NCBI RefSeq assembly: GCF_000143415.4
Contig: NW_003314349.1
Coordinates: 1 to 7,943 of the forward strand
Reading direction: 5' to 3'
DNA length: 7,943 nt
Origin: Selaginella moellendorffii
Taxonomy: Eukaryota; Plantae; Lycopodiophyta
In this document: piece after piece, positions 1-7,943 of the stretch
How positions within the stretch are numbered: position 1 is the first letter of the stretch
How the letters are laid out: every line of letters begins with the position of its first letter
Translations under genes and position numbers: made by a program
Notes under the pieces: model-generated
The model's database searches: none
Seen by the model: the letters and a program-made list of their open reading frames with translations, nothing else
What the model was told of the DNA's origin: nothing

Positions 1-1
1 T

Positions 2-3000
2 AGGAAGGTGTTGGACGATCAGAACATCCGGTTCTATGCCGTCTCCGGGCAGCATTCTAGCTTGGCGATGCAACAGATAGTTGTGGATATTATGGTGGGC
101 GAGGAGGTGAAGAAAGTCTTCAAGACAAGAGTTGTCCGCCTGATAAAAGGCAACTCGCCCCTCCGATCTATCATATACATCTCCCACGCGCAGAATGTCA
201 AGCAAGAAACGTGCTACAAATCGGGTCTGCACGAGACATTGGCACGAACACGGAAGCTCTGGGTTCAACTGAAGAAGCCACAAAAACCAGGACAAGGACG
301 TGCACTAGCAACTAGCGCCTGGCAGGTAAGCCTCGTTGCATGTGGCATAGCATGTGGCCTCACGCCATTTCCATTGCAGGAATTCTCGAGTCTTCTCTCG
401 AAAACACTGGGGGTCAATGACACACTCAGCATCCATAACATTCTACTCGCGACAAAAGTTGTTTTTGACAAATGGGTAGATGTGCTAAGGAGGTACCATG
501 ACGGGGAGTTGCTAAACTCAATGGGTGTGGAGGACGGCCGGAAGCCCAATGATTTGAAGCTCAATGCCTTGCGTTTCTCGCGGTCTCTAGACGACGACGA
601 CCTTCTGACAGTGGCTAATGCTCTTCTACTTGGTGAGGTAGTCTTCAACAAGACCAAAATGACTCCCGGCCATATTGTGACATACGAGGACTTGTGCACG
701 ACTCTGAGAGCTCGTGCGCTATTGAAGGATTGGATCTTCGAGCAAGTGGCCGTGGCGAGGGTGAGCATCGACACCACGCAAGAGATGATGGAAGAGCTGG
801 ACTTGTCAAATGAAGACATCGACGAGTACGTGAAGGGGGCCCCCAAGTTCATCGATCTGCTGCGGGATGCCACGAAAAGTAAAGCTGAGAAGTTGGATCA
901 GTATCCAAATTTCATTAAGAGGGATGTCGACCGCCGGCTTCAGAAACAGCTCGACCCCGCAGCAGAGGCCTATCGAGAACCTTACCGGGTATACGTGAAT
1001 TCGGATGAGGATCAAAGGTGGAGGAGCATCGTTTCCCGCGGAGATGAGCAGGTCAAGAACATCTTTTGTGTGATGGACTTCACAAACGAGGAGATCACTC
1101 ATGCAGACGAAGTCAGCTCCATCATTGACTTAATGGTGGGACTTGCGGAGGTGGAATCTTCAGTCCACTATATAATCTACGACTCCGAATCCTATCACAA
1201 GTTCTGGAAGGCCTTGAACGAGGTGAAGGCTCGGTTGAAAGGCAAGGAGATGCGGGAGATCCATGGGATAATGGCTAAGAAGAAGATACCGACGAATGTC
1301 CGCATCTTCACAGTCGCCCTTGTTATTGGTCCTGCAGCAGAGTGGGACTGGAGTGACTTCCCAGCTTCGTTCAACAAAGCCGATCGAATTGATCTGAGGG
1401 AGGTCAATTTACCCGTGCCTGAGGAACTGAAGACGGCTATGGAGCTTTCGAATCCAAAGAAAGCTCCAGGTGCAGCATGGGAAATGCTCAGCTGGGTCTT
1501 CAACGCAATAGCGGGTGACTCCAAGGGCAAATGCGTTGTCGAGTACAACTGCAGCGGACTATTCTTTCGAGCCGCACTACTCAAGGGTGTCCCGTGTGTT
1601 NNNNNNNNNNNNNNNNNNNNNNNNNNNNNNNNNNNNNNNNNNNNNNNNNNNNNNNNNNNNNNNNNNNNNNNNNNNNNNNNNNNNNNNNNNNNNNNNNNNN
1701 ACCTGGTGAGTACGCACTTTAAGTTTAAATGTTATCTCACAAGCTCTGTATGCAGGAGCGTGGCACCCCCAGATGCTGAAACGGCGTTAACAGCTACTGA
1801 TGTTAGGCCGAGGTCACAACCTGCACAAGGTAAGGTCACGTGAGGCCTCACGCCATTTTGATTATAGATCGTTGTGAATATTCAGACACGAGGACTGAAA
1901 AGCGCACTGGTGGCGCGTCGAAGAAGGACAAACAGACAAGCAATAGGAAAAAAGGAGGTACAAATTATATTTGCAATGGCGTGTGGTCTCATGCCATTCC
2001 TTGCAAGAGACACTTCTTCAAAGGCAAAACAGGCAAGCACCAGCCAAGCTCAAACTGACAGTGGTCATAAAAAGCGAAAGCACGTTGGACAGTCGTCGGG
2101 ATCAGAGGCGTTTGATTCGAAAAGGAAGAAGGGCAACGAAAAGATGATAGGTAATGCCTCGCGGTTATGGCGTGTGTGCTCATGCCATTCATTGCAGATC
2201 AAGGGCTGAGTGAAAGGAGCCAGTCACCACCTTCTGACTCAGATTCCTATGGCGGACTCCCCTTCCCCAATCTCAATGGAGAGGTACAATGGATGAGGGA
2301 TGCTTTTCAAGTCAGGGCCACGTTTTTCTCATCTCGTCATCTTCGAAGGGTGCAAGAACGTGCAGAAACCATGTTAAGACAGTCGGGTGAGGATACGGTC
2401 CTAGGTCACGCACTAAAACAGGCTATGGATGTCTTGTATTTTGAGATGGAGACTCGGCCAGATGATTTTTCCAAGATGGTCCTGGAAAAACAAGCAATCC
2501 AGCCTGAGCAGCCTATGGAAGAAATGCAAGAGGGGGATGAGGAGCCAGAGAAAGATAATGAGCAGGAAGAGCAGAAGGACGAAGAGGAGGACGAAGAAGA
2601 GGAGGACGAAGAAGAGGAGGACGAAGAGGACTTGGATGGTCCTCACAATGGTGACGATCACAATAACGACGATGACGATGATGACGATGATGGCCAGCTT
2701 GAGGTGGCCAAAGAGCAGCGGAGGAAGGTCATACAAGACAAACCATCAGGTAAATAATAGTACATCCATTCCTAACCTTTTACCATTTCTAACATTGTCC
2801 ATGTAGGTCGCAGAAGAAATGGTAAGTAGAGATTATTCAGTTGAATTAAGATACAAACTCTAGCCTTTAGTGTCGAGGAAGGATAGTGCCAAGCAAGGGT
2901 CGAAACGTATGTCCAATCCTTCAGAATCAGCAGTGCGCCCAAGTGATATCGGTCCTAGTTCCTCAATAGCAGTTGATGGTAAATACAGTATAGTCGATTC

Positions 3001-4511
3001 AATGTGCTAATGAGTTTGTTTTTAGTAGCACGGGAGGATACCATCTCAATCGAAGGGAGATATTTGGACATGCATATGGATCCGCCAGTGGACTCTACTT
3101 GCCTGCAAGAGTCATCAGAGCTGGTGGAGGCTACTATCCATATCAACGCCAAGCAAGCTGACCACGCTCCACTTGATGCTGCCCATACCACTGAGTCAAT
3201 CTTGTCCACGTATCCAACTGACGGTGACCAGGCGCCATTGGACCCGCATGAGGCCACCCCAGCCGCCGAGCCAGTCGTATCCTCATTTCCAACGTGTGCC
3301 CAATCGTCTGACTATGCGCCGTTGGAACCTCCCTACACCGCCCCTGCTGCCTGTTCGGTCATGTCCACTTTGCCAACGGAGGCACCAGCTGAAATGGCGT
3401 GTGATCACACGCCATCGGAACCACCCCATGCCACTGTTGAGCCAGTTGTACCAGAGTCTACAGCTGAAATGGCATGTGCCCACACGCCATCGGATGCGAT
3501 TGACCCCACATTGCAGAGGAGAGTATTTCCGCCCTTCACGTTTCCTCGACCAAAACCCTCTGAACGACCATCGGGAGCACCATTCGCTAATATTGTAGAT
3601 GGTAAAATTGACTTGTACCATTTTTTATGCTAACGCATTTCATTTCAGAGTCACGGCGAAAGTACTGTATCGTTTTTGATCTGAACGGTGTCCTTTTCTC
3701 CCATGAGCGTGGCTCGTCCTCGAATGTCACTGCACCCTCCAAAGCCTGCGGTCGCAAGTTGGTCAAAAGAGACAGATTCACATTAATCACACGGGAGAAA
3801 CTGCGGGATCTAATAATGACCATGCGACACTTAAAACAGAGGGCCGGGTTCAATTTGCAATTGGGAGTTTGGACATCCATGATGCGCCACAATGCATTAA
3901 CGTTGCTACAGATGATGCACGATCAGACGCGAGTAATATTACCATTTGACTTTCTCCTAACGCAGGAGGATTGCTTGACTATGGTCCATGTGAGGGGTAG
4001 CAAGCCCATCTTCGTCAAGGCAGAGGCTGTAGTGATGAACCGGACTGCTAGGTCAAGTGAAATCCTCATCATCGATGACTCGCCGATTAAAACTGCAGCG
4101 AACACGCACACATATGCAGTGCACCCCATCTCTTGCAGTATGGAAACTAGGGAGAAGAAACCGTATGTTCTGGGGGACCTTGCAAAACGGCTTGAAGCGA
4201 TGGTGATAGAGAACCGGCCAGTCCAGGAGGTGGCTGCAGAAATCAACCAAATGGCAGATGGAACGGTATATCAAAAGCCATTTGATCGGACAGACACCAG
4301 TCATCATTTATGGCATGTATATTGTCTAGCCAAGCACTATCCGCATCTCCATAATCTGCTCAACCGGATGGGTTCTTCGACCACTGAACATGAGCGTGGA
4401 CGTATTAGAGAAGAGATGGCATTACTATTGGGTTTAAATCCTGATAGTGTGGAGAGTGATGAAATTCCAAGATTATTGTATAGGCGTTGGAGGCAAAAAA
4501 TAACAGTCTGA
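2..4511 (+). CDS. Large spliced gene, 5'-partial, >=1300 aa if both sides of the gap are one gene: ParB-like + degenerate DNA MTase-like + acidic/low-complexity linker + FCP1/NIF HAD phosphatase-like domain. Exons: <2-325, 380-[gap]-1705, 1756-1829, 1886-1957, 2010-2150, 2198-2749, 2807-2821, 2871-2978, 3026-3601, 3649-4511
   Basis: Manual splicing at GT..AG introns 326-379, 1706-1755, 1830-1885, 1958-2009, 2151-2197, 2750-2806, 2822-2870, 2979-3025 and 3602-3648 joins the separate ORFs into one stop-free frame. The post-gap exons sum to 2406 nt (802 codons), ending at TGA 4509-4511. Branch-point-like CTAAC/CTAAT/CTCAY motifs are present in most introns. Continuity across the N gap is unproven. 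Confidence 0.75.
20..265 (+). other. ParB/Sulfiredoxin-like N-terminal domain (partial)
   Basis: FYAVSGQHSSLA resembles the ParB/Srx hhhdGxHRxxA motif. It is followed by a beta strand (RVVRLI) and a helix ending in Asn (IIYISHAQN), like ParB 'ialxEN'. Recognised by eye only. Confidence 0.55.
977..1600 (+). other. Degenerate beta-class (N4C/N6A) DNA methyltransferase-like Rossmann domain, likely inactive; truncated by the gap
   Basis: IFCVMDFTN (D at 1076) sits where 'liitDPPY' would be. The C-terminal KGKCVVEYNCSGLFFRAALLKGVPCV parallels 'GdxVlDpFxGSGttxxAAxxxGRxxi'. The motif IV-before-motif I order is that of the beta class. Both key motifs are eroded. Confidence 0.4.
1601..1700. other. 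Assembly gap (100 N placeholder, true size unknown)
   Basis: Run of exactly 100 N. Confidence 0.98.
2515..2690 (+). repeat. Low-complexity GAR/GAY repeat encoding a Glu/Asp-rich acidic tract
   Basis: Tandem GAGGACGAAGAAGAG units and GATGAC runs; translation EEQKDEEEDEEEEDEEEEDEED...DDDDDDDD. Confidence 0.9.
3159..3500 (+). repeat. About five degenerate coding tandem repeats (D-H/Q/Y-A/T-P-L/S-D/E-P... units, 22-31 aa)
   Basis: DHAPLDAAHT, DQAPLDPHEATPAAEPVVSSFPT, DYAPLEPPYTAPAACSVMSTLPT, AEMACDHTPSEPPHATVEPVV, AEMACAHTPSD. Confidence 0.8.
3649..4511 (+). CDS. Terminal exon: FCP1/NIF (HAD superfamily) phosphatase-like domain, DLNG subtype
   Basis: HAD motif I CIVFDLNGVL (D at 3678), motif II LGVWTSM (W at 3870), motif III Lys in PIFVK and motif IV ILIIDDSPIK (DD at 4074-4079), in the order and spacing of NIF/FCP1-like domains. 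Confidence 0.85.
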
Positions 4512-5629
4512 GATGGCATGTATTTATTTAAAAATGTAACTTATTATGGCATGGGGTTCCATGCCATTGTATTAATATTAAAAGACAATTCTTTGAGAGG
4601 ATTTGCATTATACTAGAAGTGTTACAGCATGTTATTGGAAGTCTACGAAGTTGTTTTATTAATAAGGGGAAAGTAAAGATTGAATGGGGACTTGGGCTCC
4701 ACCTAGACTCGGAGCAACTGAGCCAATATTAAAAGGATGGAAAGAAATTGGACGACAATGACAAGGAGAAGAGAGAGGTGAAGCAGTGAGAAGTGATTGA
4801 GTAGACATTTCCTTGTTTAAAATAAAATGGCATGTGCCTCAATGCAGTTGAATTTTGTTATATTTATATACTATATAAAGGTTTGGAAACCTTATTTTAC
4901 AAGTGGGATAATGACAATTCCCACTTTAACGAAATAGAGCTTGGTCCAGGAACCAGTTTTGAAGGGACTCTCCAGTTGGGCTTCCAAACCGACTTGAGGT
5001 TGGGACTGGGACTAAGGGGCCTTGGGTGGGAGTGAGCATGGACTTGGCTGGTGCCGGAGGGGCCATCCAAGGAAGTGCTCAAGAGCAGCTCCCACTCCCG
5101 AAAGGGAAACCGATTGCGGTGCTCCCGGCTCATGTGGAGTGGTGCCCCACTTGAGTACCATGCGGCTCATTGGTCCTCGCCCTTCCTAGGGGCTTGGGCC
5201 TTCCTTCGGGACGGAAGTGGGGGGCGAGAGGTACCCATACCGGGCCGTTAGGCCACGGTGTTTCGCCCCGGCGTCCCGAAGCAAGTGTTGCACTCAAGAC
5301 TTGGGATTTAGAGGGTCCCATGATCAAGTCTTGTGGTACCAAGGGATGTTAGGAACCTGGAAGCTTGGTGTGCTTGGCTGCTTGTGCTTGCGGGGAGTGT
5401 AGCCGAACCTTAAGTCCAGTCTAACCCGGGGAGGGGGATTGGGAGTGATTTGGGAATCCGTGGAAGGATGGCTAACACTCCGTTGCTCGTGCAGTGAGTA
5501 GCTGAAACCAAGTAGGAGTTGGTACCATAGGCGAGAACCTTGGCAAGGGAACTTAGCAAAAGCCAAGGCAGTGTTGGACGGATAGACGAGGTAAGCTGGC
5601 AAATTGGAAAGGAAAAATTTGTGGCTTAC

Positions 5630-5911
5630 AGAGTCCGATTGCTTAGGTTTAGCTAGTTTAGCCACCTCATCTTCTTTCTTCCTCTTCTTGTTCTCCTTCT
5701 TCAATTTATGAATTTCCCTTCGCAAATTCTCAATCTCGACTTCCTGAGCCGTACACTGCAGCGCCACAGCATTTGGCTCTTCCTCTTTTGACTCAGCTTC
5801 AGCCTCTTCCGCAACATCTCTAGTAGGAGTTTCCTCCTCTTGATTCACCTGTCTAGAGGTTTCAGCATCATCAGTATGGTTCCTTTTCACCATTTCGCTA
5901 GCTGCATGCAT
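5630..5911 (-). pseudogene. Truncated gag-like N-terminal fragment (acidic segment + coiled coil) of the minus-strand retroelement
   Basis: ATGs at 5911/5893 lie ~170-190 nt downstream of the PBS. The translation MVKRNHTDDAETSRQVNQEEE...EVEIENLRREIHKLKKENKKRKKE then loses coding character. There is no recognisable capsid, zinc-knuckle or pol motif, so the assignment is positional. Confidence 0.4.
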
Positions 5912-6072
5912 ACGTCTATCAATAATTGAACATGCATACAACGTTCTTACCGAATGGTGCAATCCCACTAATTCTACACAGGTCGCTTCAGATTTACTAG
6001 AAAAGTCTCTGGGTATGCAACTTGAGTTAGAAAATTCAACAAAAGTTGGATAGAAATCATTGAGACAATTTG

Positions 6073-6082
6073 TCTGATACCA
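6073..6082 (-). mobile_element. LTR-retrotransposon primer binding site (tRNA-iMet type)
   Basis: The minus strand reads ...CTACA-TT-TGGTATCAGA: a canonical LTR 3' end (CA), a 2-nt spacer and the plant iMet PBS core TGGTATCAGA. Confidence 0.75.
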
Positions 6083-6084
6083 AA

Positions 6085-6410
6085 TGTAGTGCACTTGAAT
6101 TTGGAGCTGAACTCCAAGCCTGTTGCACTACGAAACGAGGGTCCGGTACAATGCCATGAGCACCAGCTCCTCGTATCTAGCACCTGCACGCAAAATGGTG
6201 TTAGACGGAGTCTGGCACAATTTTGGCATACCGGTGGCCTAACGCGAGAAGGAGGGTACCCCACTGACTAGACCAGTGTGGAGCTTGGGCTTAGACCCAA
6301 GCCGAACGCAAAACAAGGAGAGACACAACCTAGAGAAAGCCAAACTAATGTCTCAAGTGGTCAGACATACATTCCAACCACTATCACTATTTACATTTTG
6401 GAACCCCCCA
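6085..6410 (-). mobile_element. Putative LTR (~310-325 bp); right boundary at 6395 or 6410
   Basis: The left edge is fixed by the adjacent PBS. The right edge is inferred from TGTA...TACA termini (6085/6395), or from the minus-strand TG at 6410 just after a G-run PPT-like tract. No second copy is in the window to confirm it. Confidence 0.5.
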
Positions 6411-6413
6411 TAT

Positions 6414-6434
6414 CCCCCCCCCCCCCCCCCCCCC
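6414..6434 (-). repeat. G21 homopolymer on the minus strand (C21 on plus); PPT-like, G-quadruplex-capable
   Basis: 21 consecutive C, with a further C6 run at 6404-6409. Confidence 0.85.
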
Positions 6435-7030
6435 TGAGGAACACACACTTCTAGCTTTCACCCCAAGCCTCCTTTAGTACCAGGAGTTAGTCTCTGGAAC
6501 AACCTTGAAACTTACTAAATATGGAATGTCTCTAGATTGCGAATTTAGACACGGGATGAACACCATTGTGTTCAAGCTGACCTCTACATTCCGTAGATAT
6601 GCCGAACAAATGAATCTAGACACTTTCCATAAATAGCACTTGGGACCGAAATGAGACTAACACAAAGGGCATGATAGTGAGGGTGTTTAGCAAATACGGT
6701 AAGCTATCATTTAGTGAATATTGAGGGACTAGTCTCAATATCACGGGGGTTCCCAACACTAGCAAGTGCAAGCCAACATCATGAGTTTCTCGTCACCGTG
6801 TCAAGTATGCTTGACTTAATGACAACTTAGGATTTCCTTCCTTAGTGCCCTTTTGGTCTAAGTGCACATGTGTTGACCAGTTTCTCAACTAACTTGGGCA
6901 GAGACCATAAAGGGAACTAGCAATACTGACCTCCTGCCATGGTGGCAGTAAAGAGAGAGTGTCTGTAAGGACTAGCCGACAAGTATTTTTTGATACCTGA
7001 AGTCATATTTGCGATAAACTTGCTCTCAGA

Positions 7031-7243
7031 CCCGACCTCAAACTTGCTATTGGGCCCAACCTTGGACTCACTCTCAGACCCAACCTTGGACTCACTCTTG
7101 AACCCAACCTTGGACTCACTCTTGAACCCGACCTTGGACTCAGTCTAGAACTCGGTCTTGGACTAGGTCTTGGACTCAGTCTGGGACTTGATCTCAGACT
7201 CTGTTTTGAATTTAGTCTCAAAATCAGTTTCGGATTCAGTCTT
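7031..7243. repeat. Minisatellite, ~9 units of 24 bp built from 12-bp subunits (CCCAACCTTGGA-CTCACTCTTGAA)
   Basis: Unit starts at 7031, 7055, 7079, 7103, 7127, 7151, 7175, 7199 and 7223. Units 7079 and 7103 are identical; the flanking units are degenerate. Confidence 0.9.
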
Positions 7244-7339
7244 ATTTGATGAACTCTTTATCATTCCGGTCATGGCTTTAGGGATCCTTTAGCATACAAT
7301 ACCATTGGGGAGTTGGTTCCTTATATATTAATCTTCTCT

Positions 7340-7943
7340 AAGGGGGGGAAAATGTTGCAAATGTGATTGTGGGTATTGAACATATGATTGTGGGTAACGG
7401 AGATAGTAGGGATAGTGGGTAATTCAGGTATGGCCGACCAACCTAAGGTATAATTTTATCTTTTGCTTGTGTGCCTATCCTTGTTCTATATCTGGTTTGG
7501 GTTTAAGACCAAATTCCATACCATACTAGCTAATGAAGTACCTATATCCTTGCATTATGCCACTTATATATTGAAATTGTGCTAAACTTTGTTTGGCTCT
7601 ATTTTGCATGTTGGTCCTAGCACTAGGATGCTGGATGCTCTAGAATTGTTCCTATGTCACTTTGTGTTTTTGTCCCTTTATTCCTTGGGCTTTATGTATT
7701 TCATGCTCCACTTCTTTCACTCCTAGAATTTATACTCAGGAGTTTGGCTCCATCCCTTCATTCAGTGGCCCAAGGCCTTGAAATTCAAGTTCTGCTCTGT
7801 ATGTGTTATGTGGCACATGATATGTGACATCCTTGAGATTTGCCCATTAATATTTTAGAAAATGGTTATAACATTCATTTACTATAGCTTGTTGATTGAT
7901 CCATTTACACTTGGAGTAAATTATTGGATGGAGAAGGTATGTA
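7340..7943 (+). mobile_element. Possible polypurine tract plus start of a 3' LTR of a second, + strand retrotransposon
   Basis: AAGGGGGGGAAAA (7340-7352) is immediately followed by TGTTG (7353), the usual PPT-LTR junction. The downstream sequence is non-coding and T-rich. The right boundary is not seen. Confidence 0.4.

Follow-up and report, generated by a model that had tools for sequence, protein, structure and literature searches.

A dispersed 22-bp palindrome in a mobile element of Selaginella moellendorffii as a putative binding site for an element-encoded protein

The 7,943-nt stretch of DNA analysed here (the window; positions 1 to 7,943 of contig NW_003314349.1 of Selaginella moellendorffii) includes the right part of a mobile element (1-4942) that is young and present in many copies. 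Within it, a 22-bp palindrome is dispersed through a predicted gene (2-4511; plus strand) and the non-coding tail that follows it. The palindrome is provisionally identified as a double-stranded DNA site for a dimeric protein encoded by the element, most likely the product of the surrounding gene, a reading held with modest confidence. This reading builds on direct observations: the motif has a fixed geometry and occurs in the window only inside the element, the element end was mapped, and a sister family carries a site at its terminus.

Copies, geometry and base variation of the palindrome

The window was scanned with the motif ATGGCRTG-N6-CAYGCCAT, the chance level being taken from 200 dinucleotide shuffles. 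Six matches with at most two mismatches were found against a shuffle mean of 0.01, and none of the 200 shuffles reached six; with up to three mismatches the total is eight sites (five exact, one with one mismatch and two with three). All eight have a spacer of 6, while spacers of 3, 4, 5, 7 and 9, which include the spacer-5 and spacer-7 controls proposed in the initial annotation of this DNA, give no site in the window at up to three mismatches, and the two matches with a spacer of 8 are by-products (the site at 1835 in a shifted register and a half-site at 4310). That annotation had counted seven copies of the motif with a spacer of constant length and varying sequence. Only five of them fit (1976, 2167, 3394, 3469 and 4546), as the copy at 347 has one mismatch and that at 1835 has three; the constant length holds, while the spacer sequence is not free, with G at position 10 and C or T at position 13 in 8/8 sites and T at position 9 in 6/8. 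The refined site is nearer to ATGGCRTGnG-nn-CnCAYGCCAT.

Four copies lie in introns, at 347-368 (intron 1; one mismatch), 1835-1856 (intron 3; left arm decayed, three mismatches), 1976-1997 (intron 4; exact) and 2167-2188 (intron 5; exact). Two exact copies are in coding sequence, at 3394-3415, where the site is a perfect 22-bp palindrome, and at 3469-3490; they belong to units 1 and 2 of one 75-bp tandem duplication (41 nt, 85% identical) and are thus not independent. Another exact copy (4546-4567) is located in the 3' non-coding tail, 35 nt past the stop codon (4509-4511), and shows no variant at 5% or more among the family copies, while the last one (4827-4848), 94 bp from the element end, is decayed in its right arm (three mismatches), to the same degree as the left arm of the site at 1835. 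The placement and the decayed last copy described initially are thereby confirmed, and no copy was found beyond 4848, in agreement with the earlier limit of about 4850. There are also two lone left half-sites, one in the last exon (4310-4317) and one directly 3' of the stop codon (4513-4520). The sites are spaced by 75-1488 bp with one tandem pair only, and all eight are inside 1-4942, with none in the 3,001 bp beyond. Non-coding sequence makes up 18% of the element part, yet holds six of the eight sites (P 0.0008). An origin as a peptide repeat (MAC..TP) was rejected, as synonymous positions are fixed and copies also occur outside the coding sequence, and insertion of individual copies in the manner of miniature inverted-repeat transposable elements is unsupported, since no flanking direct repeats were found around any copy.

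Across prokaryotic genomes totalling 596 Gb, the strict motif has five single matches where about 4.3 are expected, which is the chance level. It is absent from viral_contigs, where no relative was found either, and the virus-derived origin once suggested for it finds no support there.

When the half-sites are symmetrised, C5 and T7 are invariant (16/16 each), position 6 is equally divided between G (8) and A (8), and position 10 is G in 14/16. Deamination-type changes in the eight window sites fall eight times on positions 6/17 and never on positions 5/18 (P 0.008; P 0.016 for this contrast when the tandem pair is counted once). Plain CpG decay, to which the R and Y variation had been attributed, is inadequate because positions 5/18 should change as often as 6/17, and, with only one of the two CpG positions varying, the half-site appears to be under selection. 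Mirror positions 6/17 form an A.C mismatch in 2/8 sites and positions 9/14 are mismatched in 4/8; a DNA site for a dimeric protein is therefore preferred over an RNA stem, and in this respect the first interpretation of the motif is upheld.

A hairpin role, be it in the transcribed RNA or in the single-stranded DNA of a rolling-circle intermediate, is very unlikely. The folding energies of four copies range from -11 to -14.4 kcal/mol, the lowest value belonging to the copy at 4546, whose double changes, common to the family copies, preserve pairing (A-T at 6/17 and G-C at 9/14), and a subterminal inverted repeat is present at the element end. However, the conservation is that of the sequence itself, beyond pairing, the mirror positions mismatch as described, the other four copies reach only -4 to -8 kcal/mol, and Rfam has no match over the sites.

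The mobile element, its right end and its flanks

Contigs assembled from read runs cover 1-4900 evenly, and the stretch is present in 20 of the 24 listed runs, which come from five named studies and of which 13 rows represent one sample. The runs of that one sample contain only 3-4 million assembled letters, and such tiny assemblies still contain 75-77% of the words, as would be expected of a high-copy repeat. Alignment of the contigs of four runs to 4490-5010 revealed a sharp end at 4942, with differing flanks in three of the four, namely X1 (eight contigs, agreement 0.46), X4 (one contig) and X7 (two contigs). The region 1-4942 is part of a mobile element, whatever its class, and the proposal that the palindrome marks such an element is borne out by this end, the differing flanks and the terminal site of a sister family. 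In run X7 the element contig has a depth of 80.8 and the junction contigs 2.1, a depth that is no copy number and serves as a hint only. Between 4490 and 4942 only one substitution and one insertion reach 5% among the copies, and because the copies are nearly identical, the variant at 4546 and the decay at 4827 would predate the burst.

A subterminal inverted repeat (4901-4926; 8-bp arms and a 10-nt loop) is located 16 nt from the end, and positions 4901-4940 are common to the sister family (record 18 of run X4, with loose ends before 4901 in X1, X4 and X11). This family carries a one-mismatch palindrome directly before the common terminal 40 bp (X4 and X11). The right end reads ...AGAGCTT, of which the TT is invariant at the junction, while the first flank bases vary; the native base before 4943 in the host repeat described below is A, with no T there.

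The sites might also be bound by a transposase or recombinase from the unseen left part of the element to form a transposition complex, in the manner of subterminal repeats, with the window gene as cargo. The sister-family site adjoining the common terminus and the window family's site 94 bp from it would fit, as would the activity of transposases as sequence-specific regulators described in the available part of a 2026 preprint (10.64898/2026.08.24.746577), but six of the eight sites are 1.4-4.6 kb away from the end, and the consensus of this family, which was active recently, has a decayed site at the position nearest to it, so this explanation is judged unlikely. A recombinase was not found in the window and most sites are gene-internal, which leaves the crossover role of the tyrosine-recombinase type considered initially unsupported.

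The element is inserted into an LTR-like (long terminal repeat) repeat of the host (4943-5630; plus strand), which lies outside it and served as its target. In other copies of this repeat, a single shared sequence continues leftwards past 4943 (agreement 0.99 among 18 X1 contigs), and the repeat ends with ...TACA at 5630, where a loose end carries TGGTATCAGA, which we take to be a Met-tRNA primer-binding site. On its minus strand, the following region (5631-6205) contains open frames that probably include a short intron (about 5903-5950) and whose product is acidic with a coiled coil; its cover is below that of the element, it is missing from run X3 and it has no convincing Pfam match. In 6207-7242, a second LTR-like repeat starts with TGTTAGA near 6207; this stretch also has a homopolymer of 21 C (6414-6434), and a tandem array of 12/24 nt occupies 7016-7242. 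The observed/expected CpG ratio is 0.77 in the element, 0.52 in the LTR-like repeat and 0.29 in 6207-7943 (other regions span 0.29-0.61), and the higher value of the element is a weak hint of less methylation.

The surrounding gene, its mini-introns and its product

Within the window, the predicted gene, which is open at its 5' end, spans about 1,344 codons and has nine introns of 47-57 nt, all bounded by GT-AG. Introns 1-5 are placed at 326-379, 1706-1755, 1830-1885, 1958-2009 and 2151-2197, and introns 6-9 at 2750-2806, 2822-2870, 2979-3025 and 3602-3648, their splice sites being predicted from sequence. The model is phase-consistent from 1886 to the stop codon, and intron 1 is supported because its 18 codons are absent from the Selaginella homologues. 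One base near 1763, present in X3, X11 and part of X1, is missing here, which causes a frameshift relative to the other copies, and the window copy may thus be a pseudogene. Relative to the family, this copy has small deletions of 1, 3, 9 and 11 nt (1763, 3028-3030, 3289 and 4787), which show up as insertions in other runs. A gap of 100 N (1601-1700) is bridged by one X3 contig with 83 bases. Contigs of run X20 traverse the introns; as the RNA nature of X20 is only guessed, they are uninformative on splicing.

The spacer ends with CT in 4/4 intronic copies, giving CTCAY with T at position 14, and in 0/4 of the others (Fisher P 0.029). In introns 1, 4 and 5 this CTCAY is the sole branch-like motif 15-18 nt from the acceptor (CTCAC at 17 nt, CTCAT at 18 nt and CTCAT at 15 nt, respectively), and the predicted branch point of the motif-free introns is 14-16 nt from it. 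The right arm is thus predicted to double as the branch point in introns 1, 4 and 5. In intron 3, a second in-frame AG at 1867, 17 nt past the branch-like A of the motif, would make an intron of 38 nt. Introns 2-9 are apparently all in phase 1, so that skipping of any internal exon would preserve the frame. The gene-internal copies all keep the reading frame of a neighbouring exon (MAC..TP/MP register), and the 54 nt of intron 1 are stop-free; intronisation of former coding sequence is possible.

These features would also suit an introner-like relic, i.e. a hairpin-bearing mini-intron that spread within the element without any binder and was kept as a branch point or splice-site bridge. Introns 1, 4 and 5 are alike outside the motif too (60-78% identity in their 3' parts), introns 1 and 5 both have GCCTCG after the donor, and the branch-point distances of motif-bearing and motif-free introns are comparable, in addition to the bias at position 14. 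Such an origin is nevertheless decidedly unlikely, as half of the copies (4/8, in coding sequence and tail) and the terminal copy of the sister family are outside introns, the left arm is conserved though without a role in splicing, the stem would presumably bury the branch point, and target-site duplications flank no copy.

The C-terminal part of the product, encoded by the last exon, contains a NIF/HAD phosphatase-like domain (3651-4508, plus strand; Pfam PF03031, E 4.4e-6, 26.9 bits, cut-off 21.8), which is possibly inactive given its motif DLNGV. Upstream of it are an N-terminal fragment (2-325, plus strand), whose DUF3723/ParB_N-like features in the ESM Atlas are a lead only, and a conserved helical domain followed by a region resembling a degenerate N6/N4 DNA methyltransferase, again a lead only (380-1600, plus strand; from homologues P0002, P0003 and P0005 and the atlas). 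The atlas compares language-model features, and scores below 0.9 count as leads only. The first 108 residues are close to two DUF3723 clusters (0.92 and 0.91) and a ParB_N cluster (0.89), the whole 533-codon N-terminal frame is near clusters of phage ParB + N6_N4_Mtase fusions (0.76), and the two best-scoring clusters (0.93 and 0.90) are of eukaryotic origin, the majority from Streptophyta.

A phmmer search with the 533-codon frame gave five matches, of which P0002 (a cluster from S. moellendorffii), P0003 and P0005 were kept, while P0001 and P0004 were dropped as repetitive. P0002 and P0006-P0014 form a streptophyte-like family having a conserved helical domain with invariant K, W, G, G, L and K; the single locus for P0009 (L001) was rejected as an unrelated bacterial glycosyltransferase-like cluster. 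The helical region of the Selaginella homologue was modelled at pLDDT 80, and searches with this model, which barely probed residues 1-143, gave no Foldseek match at E 0.001 (best VIA Z 4.7), no helix-turn-helix match to ParB structures and no match to a solved fold. The 533-residue model is poor (pLDDT 47), and the fold searches with it are uninformative. The candidate ParB-like domain at the N-terminus is truncated by the edge of the window, and its model is poor. Motifs of N6/N4 methyltransferases comprise the DPPY-type catalytic motif and the SAM-binding motif, and by eye only degenerate look-alikes are present.

Word-indexed protein searches returned no match at E 0.001, the protein was not found in viral_contigs nor the NIF exon in metagenome_contigs, tblastn in phages and plasmids gave no significant match, and sequence searches of the PDB gave no relevant one. 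ParB/DUF3723 and methyltransferase homology are thus leads only, and the parS-like character proposed for the palindrome finds a lead in the atlas features of the N-terminus, unconfirmed by HMM, profile and fold tests.

Proposed function and comparison with known systems

Under the preferred reading, each 10-bp half-site (ATGGCRTGnG) would be read by one subunit of the dimer, which would tolerate G or A at position 6 and require C5 and T7. Sites would accumulate where their cost is lowest, that is, in tiny introns, in the 3' tail and in a tandem-duplicated part of the coding sequence that is disordered. Binding would enable the element to tell itself apart from host DNA and to activate or protect copies of its own family, as shown for VANC21 and TnpA in their transposons. 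The DUF3723/ParB-like N-terminus might load at the sites and perhaps spread, while the methyltransferase-like and NIF domains might act on DNA marks or the transcription machinery. What we infer here is that a protein binds, which protein this is and that it counters silencing, the latter two being the weakest steps.

A number of observations weigh against this reading. Confinement of the sites to 1-4942 has, taken alone, a P of about 0.02, and 3/8 sites are decayed, with the decay at 4827 running throughout the family. In the sister family, position 18 of the site is altered, which turns the contrast of 8:0 into 8:1, and both the pairing-preserving double changes and the folding energy of the copy at 4546 would suit a stem. 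The likeness of introns 1, 4 and 5 suggests that copying of a whole mini-intron may lie behind part of the spread of the motif, and both coding constraint and the youth of the element confound the CpG comparison, in which the 3' tail has a ratio of only 0.35. As to the protein, the DUF3723 atlas match shares 162/256 features, below the 170 typical of family members, Pfam, NCBIfam and PHROGs searches matched no ParB or methyltransferase families, and hhalign against ParB, methyltransferase and candidate fused proteins (49/63, 23/30 and 15/17, respectively, after a length filter) gave probabilities below 2%, with family HMM scores inside the shuffle range. Residues 16-22, a position assigned by eye, are GQHSSLA and thus lack the arginines of GERRxRA, described in the available part of the source as the arginine-rich CTP-binding motif of ParB (PMC7333895). 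The binder could also be the transposase of the left part or a host factor.

Close parallels are found in flowering plants. According to the available parts of the respective papers, the VANC21 motifs of Arabidopsis are concentrated in non-coding parts of VANDAL transposons, VANC motifs being 8-9 nt long, asymmetric and arranged in tandem arrays (PMC5735166), and TnpA binds clustered cognate motifs and activates its own Spm/CACTA family (10.64898/2026.08.24.746577). As in VANDAL transposons, many family-specific motif copies, enriched in introns and other non-coding parts, lie in or near an accessory gene, and as proposed here for the window element, TnpA is an element-encoded factor with cognate motifs in its own family. 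In contrast, the window motif is a dispersed 22-bp palindrome of fixed geometry instead of a tandem array, a Pfam search of the window found no VANC or Mutator domain, the sites are mostly internal whereas those of TnpA are terminal, and the right end (...AGAGCTT) differs from the CAC..GTG termini of EnSpm/CACTA. Further features of the VANDAL/VANC system are a Mutator-type transposase and demethylation in trans. The best-supported reading, by analogy, is that the palindromes would act like VANC/TnpA self-recognition, yet without the defining motif and terminus features of these systems.

In the bacterial ParB/parS system, parS is a palindromic site from which the bound ParB spreads, with ParA as its partner. 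The window resembles it in having dispersed inverted-repeat sites near a gene with ParB_N-like N-terminal features, but GQHSSLA stands in place of GERRxRA, a helix-turn-helix match is lacking, no ParA was seen in the window, and the gene belongs to a eukaryote, has introns and joins this N-terminus to methyltransferase-like and NIF domains. Fusions of ParB-type domains to eukaryotic adenine methyltransferases are described from chlorophytes, chytrids and haptophytes, and not, in the available part of that paper, as transposon site-binders (PMC4738411). DUF3723 is a conserved accessory gene of the fungal Starship transposons, and the available part of the paper does not mention an internal palindrome array (10.1101/2021.12.13.472469). 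The window gene likewise may be an accessory gene of a cargo-carrying element, with DUF3723 as the nearest named atlas family of its N-terminus (0.92), but the host is a streptophyte, and neither a Pfam match to DUF3723 nor a DUF3435 captain was found in the window. In Starships this captain is a tyrosine recombinase encoded by the first gene, and short target repeats are a further feature.

Among Helitron-like elements, as far as the available text goes, HLE1 has a 3' hairpin followed by CTRR and an A|T target, while HLE2 has a T|T target, short terminal inverted repeats (TIRs) and a stem-loop at one end (PMC11417382). A stem-loop near one end, TT invariant at the junction and no need for long TIRs are points of resemblance to this group. 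Unlike HLE1, no CTRR follows the inverted repeat at 4901-4926 and the first flank bases vary, a comparison valid only if this is the 3' end; the fit to HLE2 is partial, as TT and stem-loop agree while the native LTR base before 4943 is A; and, unlike in Helitrons, RepHel is not in the window. Introners are introns of similar sequence at many unrelated loci; within this one gene, introns 1, 4 and 5 are partly alike. A literature search, outside the scope of which most subscription journals fell, found no paper joining DUF3723 with ParB and none on a comparable palindrome-bearing element.

A bolder extension of the preferred reading, which is unlikely, is that a plant transposon took over a ParB-methyltransferase fusion of bacterial or phage origin and operates it as a eukaryotic counterpart of parS/ParB, which would load at 22-bp palindromes serving also as mini-intron branch points, spread along the element and shield or activate it, DUF3723 of fungal Starships being a clamp of the same kind.

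Self-recognition by element-encoded factors has been characterised for VANC and TnpA in flowering plants, and if the reading preferred here is true, a version with long palindromes and a DUF3723/ParB-like protein would have arisen independently in a different lineage of plants, within a family that may still be active, as it is young and high-copy. DUF3723, the Starship accessory gene, would then gain a testable function. If true, the apparent double use of a protein site as a branch point in introns of 47-57 nt would be a cheap way for a transposon to gain cis-sites inside a coding gene.

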